This document shows, one piece after another, positions 2,182-11,784 of a stretch of 64,000 bases of DNA. This stretch comes from Pseudomonadales bacterium. GTDB lineage: Bacteria > Pseudomonadota > Gammaproteobacteria > Pseudomonadales > Azotimanducaceae. The position numbers and the translations under genes are program-made. How positions within the stretch are numbered: the first letter of the stretch is position 1; every line of letters starts with the position of its first letter. The stretch is taken from positions 14,706-78,705 of the forward strand of contig JBGSNQ010000165.1 in assembly GCA_041739525.1 (NCBI GenBank), read 5' to 3'. The notes below the pieces were generated by a model, which made no database searches, was not told the origin of the DNA, and saw only the letters and a program-made list of their open reading frames with translations.

Positions 2182-3405
2182 ATGGAGATGACCATGGCAG
2201 AACCGACACCCACCGGCTTTGCGCTGACCCCGTTCGATCCGACGTACCAGCGCGATCCGTATCCGGTGTTGCGTAGGGTGCGCGAAGCAGCGCCCGCGCA
2301 ATGGGACGAGATGACACGTGGCTGGCTCGTGACCACGCACGACGAAGTGCGCGAGGTGTTGCGCGATAAGGAGTTCTGGTCCGACCCGCGCAAGGCCGAC
2401 CCCGACTCCGCGGTCGCGCGTTTCCAACTCGCCGGCGATCGGGAACCTTCGATGCTGTTTCTCGACGATCCCGATCACCGGCGTCTGCGCAGCCTGGTGA
2501 ACAAGGCGTTCACTCCGAAAGCGGTCGAATCGACACGACCTCGCATCGCGGCGATCGCGAACGAACTGCTCGATTCGATCGAAGACGCCGAATTCGATCT
2601 GATCGACCGCCTCGCGGCTCCGTTGCCCGTAATCGTCATCGCCGAGATGCTCGGCATCGATGCGCGCCAGCAGGACGATTTCAAGGCGTGGTCGAATTCG
2701 ACGGTAACCGCCTTCTTCAACATCATGCGCAGCGCCGAAGAGGCCGCAATGGCCGAGAAAGCGCAGGCAGCACTCGACACGTGCTTCCGAACCGCGATCG
2801 CCAGGTGTCGCGCGAAGCCGGGCCAGGATCTGATCAGTGCCATGGTGCAAGCGACCGACGGCGACGATTCGATGAACGACGACGAAATCGTCATGCAGTG
2901 CAACCTGCTGCTGATCGCGGGCAACGTCACCACTACGGATCTGATCGGTAACGGCGTTCGCGCGCTGCTCGAAAATCCCAACGAACTCGCAAAGCTGCGC
3001 GCACGGCCGGACCTGCTCGACAACGCCGTCGAAGAAATGCTGCGATACGACTCGCCTGTGACCAATTCCGGACGCATCGCCAATCGCACCGTCGAAGTGC
3101 ACGGTTGTCCGATGCACACCCGGCAGTCGATCGGCGTTTCGCTCGCGGCTGCCAACCGTGATCCGGCCGTTTATCCGGATCCCGACCGCTTCGACATCGA
3201 ACGCGCCGACACGCACCATCAATCGTTCGGCGGCGGCCGTCACTTCTGCCTCGGCGCGCCGCTGGCACGCGCAGAGGCGCAGGAAACCATCCGCGCGTTG
3301 CTGAACCGATTTCCCGTTCTGCTTCCTGCCGCCGGCGAATTGCGCTATCGCGCCATTCCGGGATTCCGCGGCCTCGCTGAATATCGGATCAGAACGCGCG
3401 TATAA
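2182..3405 (+). CDS. cytochrome P450
   Basis: 407-aa ORF with the heme-thiolate loop FGGGRHFCLGAPLA and the I-helix-like LLLIAGNVTTT. Confidence 0.9.
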   Translation: MEMTMAEPTPTGFALTPFDPTYQRDPYPVLRRVREAAPAQWDEMTRGWLVTTHDEVREVLRDKEFWSDPRKADPDSAVARFQLAGDREPSMLFLDDPDHRRLRSLVNKAFTPKAVESTRPRIAAIANELLDSIEDAEFDLIDRLAAPLPVIVIAEMLGIDARQQDDFKAWSNSTVTAFFNIMRSAEEAAMAEKAQAALDTCFRTAIARCRAKPGQDLISAMVQATDGDDSMNDDEIVMQCNLLLIAGNVTTTDLIGNGVRALLENPNELAKLRARPDLLDNAVEEMLRYDSPVTNSGRIANRTVEVHGCPMHTRQSIGVSLAAANRDPAVYPDPDRFDIERADTHHQSFGGGRHFCLGAPLARAEAQETIRALLNRFPVLLPAAGELRYRAIPGFRGLAEYRIRTRV

Positions 3406-5186: not shown

Positions 5187-5707
5187 GATTCGGTTCCGTG
5201 CCTATGCGCGAACCAGCCGTCGATCTTCGTACGCTGTTCCTCCGACAACGTCGCATAGAAGACGTCAAACGCAGCCGCAAAGCGCTGCAATGCAAGGTCG
5301 GCCGTCTGGGCGATGCGTACCGCGGCGGCGACGTGCTGAGGCGCATCCCCCAGCGGCATTTCGCAAACGCTCCGCATGTCTACCGCCCAGTCGCTGAGCG
5401 CTCCGGTTGCCCCCGTGAGTGCGGCGACCTGCGATTCATCGAGCGTGAGCTCTTCCACCACCCAACGGTTCAACTCGGCCGCATGGTCCACCACGTGCGT
5501 ATCATCGAGATGCGAGCATGCGCGCGCCATTCCGCGGCCGTGGCCGCCATGGCCGTGTCCGCCGCCATGGCCGTGCCAAAGCCCACCGGCGGAGGCCAGA
5601 ACCATGCCTGGTTCGGCCGCGCGCACCGCAAATGCGCCAAACCCGACGATAGACAGCAGTACCGTGAGGGTCGTCAACAACACCGAAACAACGATGGTCT
5701 TCTTCAT
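5183..5707 (-). CDS. Spy/CpxP-family periplasmic protein with a His/Gly-rich tract
   Basis: Signal peptide MKKTIVVSVLLTTL..., a HGHGGGHGHGGHG tract, and two LTxxQ-like motifs (LTLDESQ, LSEEQ). Divergent from an OmpR/EnvZ-type pair, as in cpxP-cpxRA. Confidence 0.6.
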   Translation of the reverse strand: MKKTIVVSVLLTTLTVLLSIVGFGAFAVRAAEPGMVLASAGGLWHGHGGGHGHGGHGRGMARACSHLDDTHVVDHAAELNRWVVEELTLDESQVAALTGATGALSDWAVDMRSVCEMPLGDAPQHVAAAVRIAQTADLALQRFAAAFDVFYATLSEEQRTKIDGWFAHRHGTES

Positions 5708-6608: not shown

Positions 6609-7901
6609 GTGAGCCAGTTTGCCCGCATCGCATGGATCATCGTTGCAGGGTTTCTGGCGCTCGAGTTGATCGCATACGGCATTCGGGTACACGACGAAGG
6701 CGTTTCGAGCACGGGCGCCTACGCCGCATCCGTGGCGGATCGAGCAGTCACCCTCGACCGTTTGTTGGACGGTATATCGGCCGAGGAACAGCAACGCCTG
6801 CTGACGGCCGCATCGGGACCGGGCTTCCAGGTATCGCTGAGTGCAACCGAACCGCAACTGCCGCCGAACAGCTGGCGTCACGCCGACGAAATCTCCTCCG
6901 ATCTCGATGCGTATTTGAAACGCGCGGGTGCCGGCGGAACACGGATTGCCTTGTCGGAAAGGCGCACGGTCACCGTAGTGGTGCCGCGGCGCGCGAACGA
7001 CTATCTGGTGGTGCGCGCAGACGGCAGCGGACTCACTGCGCACGCGCGCCCGGCATTCATCGGCACGCTCACGACGCTGCTCGTTGCGGGCCTGGTGTTG
7101 TGGGCCACACGCCGATCGATCGGTCATCTGCCGCGCTTTGCCATCGCAGCTGAAGCGCTCGGTCGCAATGTGGCCGCACCGGAACTGGCCGAGACGGGGC
7201 CGCGCGAAGTACGACGTGCGGCCGTTGCATTCAACGAAATGGCGCGCCGCATCCGCGCCTATCTCGACGAACGTACACAGATGCTCGCCGCGGTCTCGCA
7301 CGACATCCGCACACAGCTCACGCGGCTTGCGATGCGCCTCGAATACGTAACGGATCGGAATCAGCAGGCTCGCGCCCGTGAAGACGTCGCGCAGATGACA
7401 CGCCTGCTCGACTCGGTGCTCGCGTTCTCGCGCGAGGATCGCGCCGAAGAGCCTTCGATTTCGCTCGACCTCGCTACGCTGCTCGACACGCTGGCGGACG
7501 ATGCACGCGGACTCGGCCATCGCGCCCAGTACCACGGTCCGATCCACTGCGTCATCGATGGTCGGCCCACCGCGTTGCGGCGTGCGTTCACGAACTTGAT
7601 CGATAACGCGGTGCGTTACGGCAGCGAAGCCGACATCACACTCCGGGCGGCGAACGACGATGCGTCGGTGATCGTAGAGATCGCCGATCGCGGACCCGGC
7701 ATCCCCGTCGAAGACCGTGCGCGCGTGCTGCGGCCGTTCCAGCGCGTGGAGCCGTCGCGCAACCGCTCGACCGGTGGCACCGGCCTCGGTCTTGCCATCG
7801 CACATACGGTGGTGACGCGACACGGCGGTTCGCTCGCATTCGTCGAACGACCCGGCGGCGGTCTGATCGTCCGGATTGCGCTGGGTCGCACGGCGCAATG
7901 A
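6609..7901 (+). CDS. sensor histidine kinase (EnvZ/CpxA-like)
   Basis: Two TM segments, a HAMP region, the H-box AAVSHDIRTQLTRL, N-box NLIDNAVRYG and G-boxes DRGPGI / GTGLGLAI. Starts 4 nt after the regulator stop. Confidence 0.9.
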   Translation: MSQFARIAWIIVAGFLALELIAYGIRVHDEGVSSTGAYAASVADRAVTLDRLLDGISAEEQQRLLTAASGPGFQVSLSATEPQLPPNSWRHADEISSDLDAYLKRAGAGGTRIALSERRTVTVVVPRRANDYLVVRADGSGLTAHARPAFIGTLTTLLVAGLVLWATRRSIGHLPRFAIAAEALGRNVAAPELAETGPREVRRAAVAFNEMARRIRAYLDERTQMLAAVSHDIRTQLTRLAMRLEYVTDRNQQARAREDVAQMTRLLDSVLAFSREDRAEEPSISLDLATLLDTLADDARGLGHRAQYHGPIHCVIDGRPTALRRAFTNLIDNAVRYGSEADITLRAANDDASVIVEIADRGPGIPVEDRARVLRPFQRVEPSRNRSTGGTGLGLAIAHTVVTRHGGSLAFVERPGGGLIVRIALGRTAQ

Positions 7902-7938
7902 GGATGGCATACTGCGCGGCAAACGAAGAGAAGCGCAC

Positions 7939-9276
7939 ATGAACGACATCCGCAGCACGCCCGTTTCCTGCTCCGACGCCACACAACTCGACGCTTTCGA
8001 GCGCGCGCTGCGCAGCTACCAGAACTACGTCGGCGACCCGATCGCATCGATCGACGCGGTGCTTTCCGAGCACCCCGACTTCGTACTCGGACAGCTGTTT
8101 CGCGCCGGTGTGCTGATGACCGCCGGCGAACGCCGCGTCGTTCCCGAAGCAGAACGCAGCCTGCGTTCCGCGGAAGCGCTTGCACCGTCTGCCAACGATC
8201 GTGAGAAGGGGTTGATGCGGGCGACACGCCTCCTCGTGAACGGCGAATGGCACGCCGCATGCGCCGCGTACGACGCCGTGCTGGTCGAATATCCGCGCGA
8301 CGTGTTCGCGCTGCAAACGGCGCATCTGTTCGACTTCTATCGCGGTGACGCGCTGAACCTGCGCAACCGCGTCGCACGCGTACTGCCGCACTGGAACGCG
8401 AGCGTGCCCGGCTATTCGTATGTGCTCGGCATGCACGCGTTCGGACTCGAGGAGTGCAATCAATACGCGGAAGCGGAAGCCTCCGGCCGTCGTGCGCTCG
8501 ACCTGGAACCGCGCGACGGCTGGGCCGTGCACGCTGTTACGCACGTAATGGAAATGACCGGCCGCATCGACGACGGCATCGCGTGGCTCGAAGGACGACG
8601 CGATGACTGGGCGCCGGAAAACGGCTTTGCCTTTCACAACTTCTGGCATCTCGCGCTGTACCGGCTCGACCGCCAGGAATACGCCGCAGTGCTCGCGCTC
8701 TACGACGCGAACATCTACGCCAACCCGCTCGACAATTGTGTGGTGCTGGTGGACGCCTCTTCGTTGCTATGGCGCCTGCACCTCGAAGGAGTCGGGCTCG
8801 GCGCGCGCCCGGCGGTGGTTGCCGAGGTATGGCGCAAGCGCATGAACGAAGAACGCGGCTACTACGCGTTCAACGACCTTCACGCGACCATGGCTTTCTG
8901 TCTCGCCAACGAGCGCGATCAGGCGCGCGATCTGATCGAGTACGTCGAACGGACCGCGCCGGAGATTCGCAGCAGCAACGGCGACATGACCCGCGATGTC
9001 GGGTTGCCATTGATGAAAGCAGTGCTGGCGTTTGCCGACGGCGACTACGCAAGCACGATCGAACTCGCGCTGCCCGTCCGTGACCGCGCTTACACCTTTG
9101 GCGGCAGCCACGCACAACGCGACGTCATTACGTTGACGGTGATCGAAGCGGCGTTGCGGTCGAACCGAAGCGGTCTCGCGCGTCATCTGATTGCCGAGCG
9201 CACCACACAAAAGCCGGCGAGTGCGTGGGGATGGCGTTTGCTGGCGCGCGCCGACCGGGCACCTGCTCCGCGATAA
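7939..9276 (+). CDS. tetratricopeptide-repeat protein (TTC38-like)
   Basis: Helical-repeat sequence with a WAVHAVTHVMEMTGR block that I associate with the TTC38 family. Start is taken at the first ATG after the kinase stop. Confidence 0.6.
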   Translation: MNDIRSTPVSCSDATQLDAFERALRSYQNYVGDPIASIDAVLSEHPDFVLGQLFRAGVLMTAGERRVVPEAERSLRSAEALAPSANDREKGLMRATRLLVNGEWHAACAAYDAVLVEYPRDVFALQTAHLFDFYRGDALNLRNRVARVLPHWNASVPGYSYVLGMHAFGLEECNQYAEAEASGRRALDLEPRDGWAVHAVTHVMEMTGRIDDGIAWLEGRRDDWAPENGFAFHNFWHLALYRLDRQEYAAVLALYDANIYANPLDNCVVLVDASSLLWRLHLEGVGLGARPAVVAEVWRKRMNEERGYYAFNDLHATMAFCLANERDQARDLIEYVERTAPEIRSSNGDMTRDVGLPLMKAVLAFADGDYASTIELALPVRDRAYTFGGSHAQRDVITLTVIEAALRSNRSGLARHLIAERTTQKPASAWGWRLLARADRAPAPR

Positions 9277-9296: not shown

Positions 9297-10019
9297 TCAG
9301 GCGACGGTGTGAAACACCCGCTGCACGTCGTCGTCCTGCTCGAGCTTGTCGATCAGCTCGAGCGCCTCGTTGGCCTGTTCTTCCGGTAACGTCATCGGCG
9401 AAATGCAGACGTATTCGTGCTCCGCGGAGATCGGCGTGATGCCGCGCTCTTCCAGCGCCTTCTGCACGTGGCCGAACTCTTCGAACGCACAACGCACCAC
9501 GAGCTGCGCCTCGCCCTTCTCACCGGTGCTCTCGCCCATCTCTTCGAGACCGTGGTCGATGAGATAAAGCTCCAGATCGTCCTGATCGATCCCCTCCGGG
9601 TTCAGTCTGAACACACCCATACGGTTGAACATGAACTCAACCGCACCGGTAGTGCCGAGATTGCCGCCGAATTTGCTGAAGATGCTGCGCACGCTCGCAA
9701 CGGTGCGCTTGGTGTTGTCCGTTGCCGTTTCCACGATCACCGCAACGCCGTGCGGGGCATAACCTTCGTAGATGACCACTTCGTAGTCCTTCGCATCCGC
9801 GCCGGATGCACGCTTGATCGCAGCCTCTACCTTGTCTTTGGGCATGTTGACCGCGCGCGCGTTCTGCATCACCCGCCGCAGCGCCGGATTGCTGTTCGGA
9901 TCGGAACCGCCGGCTTTCACCGCGATGGTGACGTCTTTGTTGATCTTCGCGAACTGTTTCGCCATGCGATTCCAGCGCGCAAACATCGTGTGCTTTCGGA
10001 CTTCGAAAATGCGGCCCAT
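9297..10019 (-). CDS. YebC/PmpR-family transcriptional regulator
   Basis: [23 protein letters not shown]...[12 protein letters not shown]..., typical YebC-family sequence over ~240 aa. The start is trimmed from the ORF-track 300-aa ORF to this M. Confidence 0.9.
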
Positions 10020-10112
10020 GTTGGCCTCGCAGAGTGGGTGGGGCTCGACGCGGCGCGAATCTACTCGATTCGTGGCAGTAGGAGAAGGGAGGAGCAAGTT
10101 GCAGCGGGGGTG

Positions 10113-10216
10113 GGCGACGGCTGATCGGTGTTCCGGGGCCGCTCTAGCCGTCCCTGCGCTTAAGGCGCGGCCATCCATGGCCGCGACATGCCCCTCCACA
10201 CCGATCAGCCGTCGCC
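10113..10216. repeat. palindromic element A: 19-bp perfect outer stem enclosing a 66-nt conserved core
   Basis: GGCGACGGCTGATCGGTGT (10113-10131) is the exact reverse complement of 10198-10216. The core contains CGCGGCCATCCATGGCCGCG (10166-10185). Confidence 0.7.
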
Positions 10217-10259
10217 TTCAGACGTCGACGGTCACGCCGTCGTTTTGTTGGGGAGGGAT

Positions 10260-10310
10260 GAACGCGCGCTGCACGCGCGTTCCGCACCAACGCGCTTTAG
10301 CGCGTTGGTG
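10260..10310. other. two adjacent perfect GC-rich hairpins
   Basis: GAACGCGCG-ctgca-CGCGCGTTC (10260-10282) and CACCAACGCGC-ttta-GCGCGTTGGTG (10285-10310). They lie between elements A and B. Confidence 0.6.
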
Positions 10311-10343
10311 TTTCTCCACAAGCTGGCGATGGAGTTCGACCTA

Positions 10344-10453
10344 GGCGGGCGTGAGGGAATGTTGGTGAGGACCATGAGCGGCCATGGATGGCCGCGATTG
10401 AGCGACCACGGAAGGCTCGAGCGTGTCCGAACCAACATTCCCTCACGCCCGCC
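10344..10453. repeat. palindromic element B: 23-bp perfect outer stem enclosing a 64-nt core homologous (inverted) to the element A core
   Basis: GGCGGGCGTGAGGGAATGTTGGT (10344-10366) is the exact reverse complement of 10431-10453. The core reverse complement aligns with the element A core and shares the block GCGGCCATCCATGGCCGC (10378-10395). Confidence 0.7.
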
Positions 10454-10522
10454 GTTATTCGAAGCTCCATCCCACCACCTCCGTCGTTGGCGACGGCCGT
10501 GCCGCTCTGTTGTAATGCCCGC

Positions 10523-10967
10523 ATGACCCACCTCCCCAACAGAACGAATGAAGGCGCGCGCAATGCCTGGCGACTTTGTATGGCTGCCATGGTCGTGTTC
10601 GGCCTCGTGCAAGCGGTGACGAACACCGGCCTGCTGCAGACCCTGTCGATGCAACTCTACGGGTGGTTCGGCGCGCAACTCGACGTGGTGTCGATGAACC
10701 TGCTCGCCGGCGTCGGTCTGCTGTCGAGCGTGCTGGCGAACACGCCGGTGGTCGCCGCGGCAATCGTCACGGTGAAGGGTAATCTGGTTCCTGCCGAAGT
10801 GGTGCCGGAGGCAGCCCTTTCGCACGGCTTCACGGCGTGGCCGCTCGCAACGTTGCCGGTGTTCGTTGCGATGATGTTTCGCGGGTACGCTCGGCGGAAA
10901 TGCAACGCTGATCGCCGCGGCGGCCGCCAACCTCGCCGCAATCGGCGTAGGAAGACAGCGGGAGTGA
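10523..10967 (+). pseudogene. C-terminal remnant of an ArsB/NhaD/CitMHS-superfamily ion-transporter permease, frameshifted
   Basis: One frame gives ...LLAGVGLLSSVLANTPVVAAAIV...LPVFVAMMF. A +1 shift near 10877-10880 gives FAGTLGGNATLIAAAAANLAAIGV...* (TGA 10965-10967). Only ~150 of the expected >400 residues are present. Confidence 0.6.
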
Positions 10968-10971
10968 CGCA

Positions 10972-11784
10972 ATGTTGAGTCTAACCAACGATTCACTAGA
11001 GGTGCAGCTGCTCGATCCAGCAGCGGACCGCCCGCGCTTCGGTGTGCGTTACTGCACCGGCGGTTACATCTTCCAGATCCGCGACCGCGTGCACGGCGAC
11101 CTGCTCAGCGGTCCGACGTTTCCTGACAGCTTCAACTGGTTCGACGGCCAGGGTATTCCGGACGCGTTCAATCTGGGTCCACTGAACTCGAACAAAACGC
11201 TCGGCGAAGCGCTGATCATCGGCATCGGCGTGTGCGACACGCAGGCGCGCACCGTCAAGTCGTTCAGCGATTGGCACGTCACGCGTGGTGCCGATTCGGT
11301 CGAGTTCGAAACCCGGCAGACTTACGAGGACTTTTCGCTGACCCTTTCGCGAACCGTTTCGCTGCACGAACGCACGATTCGTTCGCACACCACGCTCGCC
11401 AACGTCGGTAAAGCACCGGTGCCGATGCGCTGGTTCCCACATCCCTTCTACCCGCAAACCGCAACCGACGAACTGCTGTGGATCAACGCGCCGCTGAACT
11501 GGCGCGATGCCAACGGATATACCCGGCTGCGGAATGGTTTCATCGCGCGCACCGGGTGGCCGTGGCAAGACGGCCACTATCAGCCGCTCGACCACGATGC
11601 GACGGCACCGCTGATTCTGCTGCAACGACATCCCACGCTCGGCCTCGTTTCGGCAACGTGCAGCTACGTGCCGGACTATTTCCCCATCTGGGGCAATGCG
11701 GCGACCTTCTCGTGGGAGCCGTTTCTCGAACGCACGGTATTCCCGGGGCAGTCGTACAGCTGGTGGATCGACTATTCCTTCTGA
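10972..11784 (+). CDS. hypothetical protein (no motif I can name confidently)
   Basis: 270-aa ORF with coding-like composition. The ATG lies 4 nt after the stop of the transporter remnant. Confidence 0.55.
   Translation: MLSLTNDSLEVQLLDPAADRPRFGVRYCTGGYIFQIRDRVHGDLLSGPTFPDSFNWFDGQGIPDAFNLGPLNSNKTLGEALIIGIGVCDTQARTVKSFSDWHVTRGADSVEFETRQTYEDFSLTLSRTVSLHERTIRSHTTLANVGKAPVPMRWFPHPFYPQTATDELLWINAPLNWRDANGYTRLRNGFIARTGWPWQDGHYQPLDHDATAPLILLQRHPTLGLVSATCSYVPDYFPIWGNAATFSWEPFLERTVFPGQSYSWWIDYSF

Follow-up and report, generated by a model that had tools for sequence, protein, structure and literature searches.

Organization of the locus

The DNA considered here is a stretch of 64,000 nucleotides (the window) from a Pseudomonadales bacterium of the Azotimanducaceae (GenBank assembly GCA_041739525.1, contig JBGSNQ010000165.1, positions 14,706 to 78,705 of the forward strand). 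Between a yebC-like gene and an open reading frame (ORF) at positions 10523 to 10978, it carries two structured elements, A and B. The ORF, which has no Pfam match of its own, consists of the N terminus (first codons) of an SBP_bac_3 gene fused to a fragment of CitMHS (PF03600). A and B form a divergent doublet of TwoAYGGAY-class structured elements, and in our view they probably function as an RNA platform with two sites for one CsrA/RsmA dimer.

Both elements had been singled out in a sequence-only reading of the window, and the perfect stems of 19 bp (A) and 23 bp (B) that it described were recovered exactly. The parts of the elements are listed below, where P1 is the basal helix. Bit scores refer to Rfam family RF01731 or to the covariance model R1 introduced in the next section. 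L001 is a sister strain (ENA ERZ25039597; 97% identity over 4.3 kb) that was located via its identical YebC-like protein.

10113 to 10216, minus strand: element A, a TwoAYGGAY-like three-way junction (model R1, 64.2 bits, E = 2e-15)
10113 to 10131 with 10198 to 10216: P1 arms of A, 19 of 19 pairs Watson-Crick; inner helix 10135 to 10139 with 10190 to 10194
10167 to 10184: hairpin 1 of A, loop AUGGAU (minus strand)
about 10143 to 10163: hairpin 2 of A, loop CAGGGAC, with a 2-nt deletion relative to L001
10344 to 10453, plus strand: element B, same architecture as A (RF01731, 30.6 bits; model R1, 83.8 bits, E = 7e-21)
10344 to 10366 with 10431 to 10453: P1 arms of B, 23 of 23 pairs Watson-Crick; inner helix 10369 to 10372 with 10425 to 10428
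10378 to 10395: hairpin 1 of B, loop AUGGAU
about 10400 to 10422: hairpin 2 of B, loop ACGGAA

Each element is a three-way junction composed of the long basal helix P1 and two hairpins with CA-N-GGA-Y loops. The arms of A (10113-10139/10190-10216) contain the perfect 19-bp stem GGCGACGGCTGATCGGTGT/ACACCGATCAGCCGTCGCC, and those of B (10344-10372/10425-10453) the perfect 23-bp stem GGCGGGCGTGAGGGAATGTTGGT/ACCAACATTCCCTCACGCCCGCC. Both elements fold far more stably than shuffled sequences (z = -7.6 for A and -11.3 for B). As had been proposed, the two cores are homologous in opposite orientations and share one 18-nt block, GCGGCCATCCATGGCCGC, whose positions are 10167-10184 (plus strand) and 10378-10395 (minus strand). 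With up to three mismatches this 18-mer was matched four times versus 0.35 times expected, a number reached in none of 100 shuffles. The strand bearing the AYGGAY loops is the minus strand for A and the plus strand for B, and the 5' ends of the elements face each other across the spacer, which makes the pair a divergent doublet; the midpoints are 234 bp apart. Model R1 detected no further copies in the 64-kb window, where the next match after A and B scored only 15 bits.

Relatives of the elements and family assignment

At gathering thresholds, Rfam yielded no match across the whole window and nothing relevant in 16 related loci. In a relaxed-threshold scan, however, RF01731 (TwoAYGGAY) matched element B end to end on the plus strand with 30.6 bits (E = 0.01; gathering score, 43 bits). 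The highest RF01731 score among the relatives was 37.4 bits, at locus L105. The TwoAYGGAY motif was described by Weinberg et al. in 2010 (PMC2864571), and an extended analysis has since been reported (bioRxiv 10.64898/2026.09.22.753630). Two loops of the AYGGAY type are present in both elements (AUGGAU and ACGGAA in B, AUGGAU and CAGGGAC in A). In the orthologues of L001 and L098, hairpin 1 has the canonical loop AUGGAU or AAGGAU, and the loop of hairpin 2 reads AUGGAC. In L001 both loops are canonical in both elements, and element A of the window has merely lost 2 nt in hairpin 2. A and B are thus a new lineage of a known, functionally unsolved motif rather than a new kind of element. The earlier statement that the core matched no known RNA family was wrong in substance, as the core has the TwoAYGGAY architecture at a score below the Rfam threshold.

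Other assignments were discarded. Many Rfam matches to "microRNA precursor" families reflected merely the presence of a long stem. Integron attC sites and hammerhead-type ribozymes were dropped because their consensus was not visible and Rfam returned no match to them.

Relatives were sought by scanning one genome per species for the hairpin-1 18-mer, which was found at at least 120 loci; among the matches listed, these belonged mostly to Rhodanobacteraceae/Lysobacterales and to other Gammaproteobacteria. The listed matches fall into two classes. Class 1 comprises short two-hairpin units that lack the long stem and often occur in 64-nt tandem arrays. In class 2, to which A and B belong, a long stem closes a core composed of GGGAC, hairpin 1, CGAGC, hairpin 2 and GCGUGUCCC. 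The covariance model R1 was built from 18 class-2 sequences. It recovered at least 29 elements with E < 1e-4 in the genome loci among the matches listed, and 36 further elements at the same threshold in 24 metagenome contigs that had been fetched by a subfamily-specific pattern. Cultured carriers include Haliea alexandrii LZ-16-2, Parahaliea mediterranea, Pseudoxanthomonas koreensis and Thioalkalivibrio. Below the Rfam threshold, the TwoAYGGAY-type family extends to Gammaproteobacteria of soil, marine and soda-lake habitats.

Covariation, folding strand and turnover of the basal helix

In an alignment of 29 sequences, 97% of the cells in paired columns were paired, and 17 of the 23 pairs showed changes on both sides. 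The covariation score was 0.67, compared with 0.16 for shuffles (none of 500 reached 0.67) and at most 0.12 when partners were slid; because the alignment was fitted to the model, these figures are somewhat inflated, and P1 was also measured independently of the model. P1 was paired at 96%, with double changes in all 12 P1 pairs, and nearly every copy had its own P1 sequence. A search of relatives for the shared 18-mer, proposed earlier as a check, thus returned class-2 copies whose flanking arms are paired and yet differ from copy to copy. The next inner helix, noted previously as GGGGC/GCCCC in A and GGAC/GTCC in B, covaries throughout the family (alignment columns 11-14/102-105).

In 56 non-redundant elements, P1 had a median length of 25 bp and was perfect in 19; it comprised 1,253 Watson-Crick pairs, 37 G·U pairs, 4 A·C pairs and 15 other mismatches. 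As transitions in the arms yield G·U or A·C pairs equally, the preponderance of G·U pairs (37 to 4, p = 1e-7) shows that selection has acted on the folded AYGGAY strand. These counts provide strand-resolved evidence, and the AYGGAY strand is the folding strand.

The comparison with L001 shows the same process at the level of strains. All six stem changes between the two sequences were compensatory (four pairs in B and two in A), and none was uncompensated. The elements differed at 10 to 17% of positions versus 3% in the spacer, which corresponds to a 3- to 5-fold faster divergence. The B stem of L098 contains three G·U pairs and two mismatches, and one of its pairs, U·G, is intermediate between the U-A of the window and the C-G of L001. 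At this level, the basal helix turns over rapidly through compensatory change. Of the two explanations offered in the sequence-only reading, a structured RNA or DNA family in which selection acts on the pairing of the closing helix and not on its sequence is therefore strongly supported, both by the covariation and by the compensatory changes.

Some sequence conservation was seen in the P1 5' arms of Thioalkalivibrio-type elements (L059, L127, L129, L132, L136, L141, L142 and others), which carry a GGGGTG block at a fixed depth within stems that differ elsewhere. Either the P1 sequence is partly constrained in this lineage or the copies are young.

The doublet as a dispersed module

The sequence between and beyond the elements contains the following features, the first and both palindromes being unstranded.

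10217 to 10343: spacer between the 5' ends of A and B
10226 to 10242, plus strand: terminator-like 7-bp hairpin followed by TTTTGTT, just past the reverse complement of A
10260 to 10282: palindrome 1, GAACGCGCG-CTGCA-CGCGCGTTC, 9 bp with a loop of 5, part of the A half
10285 to 10310: palindrome 2, CACCAACGCGC-TTTA-GCGCGTTGGTG, 12 bp, part of the B half
10454 to 10476, plus strand: B-type 3' tail GTTATTCGAAGCTCCATCCCACC, the right-hand limit of the dispersed doublet module

The complete doublet, consisting of an A-type stem, a spacer, a B-type stem and the 23-nt tail, was also found in L098 (a gammaproteobacterial metagenome-assembled genome [MAG]) and in L145 and L138 (metagenome contigs). 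These sequences are 74 to 82% identical to the window over positions 10110 to 10476, approximately, and their flanks show no relationship, whether compared as DNA or as protein. The tail GTTATTCGAAGCTCCATCCCACC is conserved in L001, L098, L145 and L138, while the sequence further out is unrelated. In L098 the neighboring genes encode an alpha/beta-hydrolase and a PNPOx protein, and in L138 and L145 they encode SDR paralogues, whereas the doublet of the window adjoins yebC and the SBP_bac_3/CitMHS fusion. The doublet of approximately 360 bp (A, palindrome spacer, B and tail) is thus a dispersed, mobile-like module that occupies four unrelated contexts.

The two perfect hairpins between the elements had been correctly described. 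Palindrome 1 is kept in L001, L098 and L145 and is absent from the doublets of other genera. Palindrome 2 is a diverged yet perfect copy of it, and L145 has two near-identical copies. Read in the AYGGAY orientation, each half of the doublet consists of a GC-rich palindrome (TGAACGCGCGC..GCGCGCGTTCA), a linker of approximately 35 to 43 nt and the element. Because the halves share this order, the doublet is an old inverted duplication of a unit of approximately 180 nt. A family-wide role of the GC-rich palindromes as operators or terminators was rejected, as they are limited to the sublineage of the window. Spacers vary among genera. The terminator-like hairpin at 10226-10242, which L098 does not conserve, is probably incidental. 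A further small hairpin, previously placed at about 10050-10067, amounts to just a 5-bp stem at about 10057-10073, which is no more than expected by chance.

At the outer edges of the elements, 39 copies were compared by information content over the 60 nt that precede P1 and the 50 nt that follow it, and nothing was conserved except YTGAA|G. In most of these copies YTGAA immediately precedes the first base of P1, and the sequence just after the last base is C-rich. In the window, this 5' junction reads GTCTGAA|GGCGAC on the minus strand (10217-10221). These edges may represent the true ends of the element or a processing site.

Divergent doublets are the preferred arrangement. Among pairs within 500 bp of each other (genome loci among the matches listed plus metagenome contigs), approximately 14 were divergent, 2 were tandem and none was convergent. 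This divergent excess agrees with the report on TwoAYGGAY of Pseudomonas, in which 68% of doublets were divergent with a median distance of 249 bp (bioRxiv 10.64898/2026.09.22.753630).

The second explanation in the sequence-only reading was that a core of approximately 65 nt inserts at the apex of preexisting palindromes, such that the variable stems are split target hairpins. The differing stems of individual copies and the perfect, seemingly "empty" hairpins adjoining the elements speak for this. The stems of A and B do differ from each other, as noted originally; compared with copies elsewhere, however, they are not entirely unrelated, as each stem type is inherited and recognizable in homologous doublets. 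A-type and B-type stems accompany their cores in all four unrelated contexts and diverge by compensatory change, the GGGGTG block of Thioalkalivibrio-type P1 points to common descent of stems, and the neighboring "empty" hairpins are a conserved part of the module. Furthermore, P1 is continuous with the conserved inner helix, without a boundary in most copies. As the stems travel with the core, insertion into preexisting palindromes is refuted for the doublet, and we regard it as highly improbable in general.

One element has changed orientation in place. In the related soda-lake contigs L124 and L129, whose flanks are 82 to 91% identical, the whole element at L124 5012-5121 is inverted relative to both flanks when compared with L129 1180-1289, which converts a divergent arrangement to a tandem one. 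The inversion could have arisen through recombination of the inverted P1 arms with each other. A solitary copy of the 5' arm of the neighboring element is present at about 1330-1365 of L129.

Compared with L001, the window lacks 1.9 kb at 10597/10606, a segment that in L001 holds two small ORFs together with the greater part of an SBP_bac_3 gene. The truncated transporter noted earlier beside the elements is therefore real and is better described as the product of a deletion. The rearrangement hotspot that had been suggested is weakly supported by this single event approximately 150 bp away. Two long ORFs that flank the region, at 7876-9276 and 10972-11784 (both on the plus strand), have coding-like GC content at third codon positions and no Pfam match at E <= 0.001.

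Predicted binding of CsrA/RsmA

The loops of the elements read CAUGGAU in 25 of 28 cases and CA[G/U/C]GGA[U/C], and the two GGA triplets are 23 to 29 nt apart (median, 24). The CsrA consensus obtained by systematic evolution of ligands by exponential enrichment (SELEX) is RUACARGGAUGU, with the GGA in a hairpin loop (PMC4347634). The element loops fit this consensus and present GGA in the loop, as in small RNAs (sRNAs) that sequester CsrA/RsmA. Indeed, TwoAYGGAY has been proposed as a CsrA-binding sRNA (PMC4333381), a suggestion repeated in the extended analysis (bioRxiv 10.64898/2026.09.22.753630). The same hairpin 1 also occurs in CsrB-like tandem arrays of Rhodanobacteraceae.

Taking these similarities together, we consider it likely that a transcript of the AYGGAY strand would serve as a single two-site, high-affinity platform for one dimer of the CsrA/RsmA family. 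Such a transcript would act as a decoy or sponge for CsrA/RsmA; possibly, the element would instead be the CsrA-responsive portion of a longer RNA. P1, whose bases have to pair and whose sequence is free, would be the scaffold that positions both loops and shields the RNA from degradation. Since neither a promoter nor a terminator belonging to the element is apparent, its RNA would probably originate from read-through or from unconventional promoters within the spacer, with subsequent trimming to the stable stem. The 360-bp doublet would spread like a mobile element. If binding of CsrA/RsmA holds true, the repeats would constitute a dispersed, copy-number-variable control layer over a global regulator.

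The tandem arrays themselves have a 64-nt period and two hairpins per unit, and were seen at L057 5804-5982 (Rhodanobacter aciditrophus) and in L050, L090, L103, L107 and L077. The unit of the L057 type comprises GCGGCC-AUGGAU-GGCCGC and GCGAUCA-nGGAn-GAUCGC, and the L057 array begins directly after an intrinsic terminator. These arrays look like candidates for a multisite RsmA sponge of the CsrB/RsmY type.

Several observations weigh against the proposed CsrA/RsmA platform. Regarding the family assignment, the relaxed Rfam scan of the region gave no RF01731 match for element A, and the gathering score was reached neither by A or B nor by any of 16 related loci. Regarding transcription, a scan of 9950-10650 found no sigma-70-like promoter, and in 39 copies there was no conserved motif upstream of P1 and no U-run after it, so that neither a promoter nor a terminator marks an independent sRNA gene. 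A tblastn search with CsrA/RsmA detected no gene within the 64-kb window and the fetched loci. All elements are intergenic, and their orientation relative to the neighboring genes is inconsistent. Finally, the G·U excess fits folding of RNA and of single-stranded DNA alike.

Several of these points also speak for a mobile element of the repetitive extragenic palindromic (REP)/REPIN or miniature inverted-repeat transposable element (MITE) type that operates at the DNA level. One strand would then fold as single-stranded DNA, in which hairpins tolerate G·T wobbles too, the RNA would be incidental, and the conserved loops and junction would be recognized by a transposase or recombinase whose gene lies in another part of the genome. 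The intergenic location, the inconsistent orientation and the undetected promoter and terminator are compatible with such an element, as are the four unrelated contexts of the doublet, the multiple copies of the family within single MAGs, the element inverted in place between two related strains, the conserved 5' junction YTGAA|G and the REP arrays adjoining the Pseudomonas members. However, an all-against-all BLASTP comparison of the neighboring ORFs of 42 loci revealed no recurrent partner protein or transposase, only orthologous neighborhoods and common SDR paralogues, and the neighbors are ordinary genes (SDR, hydrolase, PNPOx and YebC). Fixed terminal repeats, which had been raised earlier as a mark of known REP or MITE families, and target-site duplications were not visible at the four module junctions, where the ends are element-specific P1 arms. 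When 72,556 plasmids were searched by BLAST with the 371-bp region, no match was returned, and none of the 18 viral contigs found in an 18-mer scan of IMG/VR contained class-2 elements. As the conserved loops are, in addition, exactly the RNA consensus of CsrA, we consider an element of this kind somewhat unlikely.

The position of the elements in the window could also suggest cis-regulatory leaders, with A serving the yebC-like gene and B the SBP_bac_3 gene (a fused remnant in the window), and with each element conferring CsrA- or structure-dependent control on its downstream gene. In both the window and L001, each element is directed toward the gene next to it: 94 nt separate the end of A from the start of the yebC-like gene, and the SBP_bac_3 gene comes after B. 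Both elements are followed by pyrimidine-rich CUCC tails, and Rfam types TwoAYGGAY as cis-regulatory. However, elements in L098, L068, L115, L059 and L094 are positioned past gene 3' ends or oriented antisense to neighboring genes, and the same doublet adjoins unrelated genes in L098, L145 and L138. A function as leaders therefore appears quite unlikely.

A further possibility combines mobility with the proposed decoy function. The doublet would be a nonautonomous mobile cassette that spreads CsrA/RsmA decoy RNAs, and its long perfect P1 arms would also serve as inverted repeats for a DNA recombination that flips the core, whose orientation would decide whether read-through yields the functional AYGGAY strand; the result would be a heritable on/off switch for the decoy. 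The lack of an own promoter, the in-place inversion between L124 and L129, the few A·C pairs (as flipped G·U pairs) and a rate of change 3- to 5-fold higher in the elements than in the spacer are all compatible with such a switch, which we nevertheless regard as unlikely.

Comparison with known systems

Like REP/REPIN sequences and MITEs, the elements described here are intergenic, repeated and hairpin forming, often occur as inverted pairs and are frequently located just past the 3' ends of genes. REPs, in contrast, are fixed in sequence, their stems are short and imperfect, and they co-occur with genes for REP-associated tyrosine transposases (RAYTs), while MITEs are defined by target-site duplications and by terminal inverted repeats that do not vary. 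In the present elements, the stem sequence is free and varies among copies, the loops and junction are fixed, no protein recurs in the neighborhoods of 42 loci, and neither fixed terminal repeats nor target-site duplications were seen at the four module junctions. In the spacer of a doublet in Pseudoxanthomonas koreensis (L019, about 5570-5670), an inverted Xanthomonad REP-like pair, TGTAGGAGCCGGCCTTGCCGGCGAC ... GTCGCCGGCAAGGCCGGCTCCTACA, was observed. It recalls the REP association reported for TwoAYGGAY of Pseudomonas.

As in CsrB, CsrC, RsmX/Y/Z and RsmU, the hairpin loops of the elements display GGA motifs, and these agree with the CsrA consensus from SELEX. RsmU of Xanthomonas is, moreover, derived from an untranslated region and is not a stand-alone gene. 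Unlike these RNAs, the elements have just two sites and are dispersed and repeated instead of occupying a single conserved locus. Neither a GacA-type upstream box nor an intrinsic terminator was detected for them, and their binding of CsrA/RsmA is predicted.

Ysr224 (RF02770) is a multicopy, expressed, temperature-responsive sRNA of Yersinia. Its consensus is the reverse complement of the architecture found here, comprising hairpin 1 (GCGCC-AGGGAU-GGCGC), a CGAGC junction and hairpin 2 (UAC-AUGGAU-GUA). RF02770 matched two relatives, L106 at 7035-7131 (minus strand, 36.2 bits) and L078 at 2547-2650 (minus strand, 23.7 bits), in both cases on the strand opposite the AYGGAY loops and below its gathering score of 70 bits. 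The elements of the window gave no RF02770 match at E values up to 10. From this sequence resemblance, the two Rfam families RF02770 and RF01731 may hold a single architecture on opposite strands. The expression of Ysr224 in multiple copies speaks for the proposed RNA, and its annotation on the opposite strand is a difference that counts against it. TwoAYGGAY and Ysr224 are among the most abundant unexplained RNA motifs of Proteobacteria.

The closest known system is TwoAYGGAY itself, from which the present lineage differs in several respects. Its scores are 30.6 to 37.4 bits compared with the gathering score of 43, its compact junction has its own conserved CGU, CGAGC and GCGU, and its P1 is very long (12 to more than 40 bp; median, 25) and often perfect. 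The sublineage of the window adds a GC-rich palindrome upstream of each element. The extended form known from Pseudomonas has three extra hairpins, a 3' pseudoknot, a 5' GMTBT(T) repeat array and downstream REP arrays, whereas the extra hairpins, pseudoknot and repeat array are not evident in the present lineage, and across 39 copies there was no conserved upstream array or downstream extension. What both have in common are two successive AYGGAY-type hairpins on a common basal stem of poorly conserved sequence, multiple copies, a preference for divergent doublets approximately 200 to 250 bp apart and a proposed binding of CsrA/Rsm proteins.

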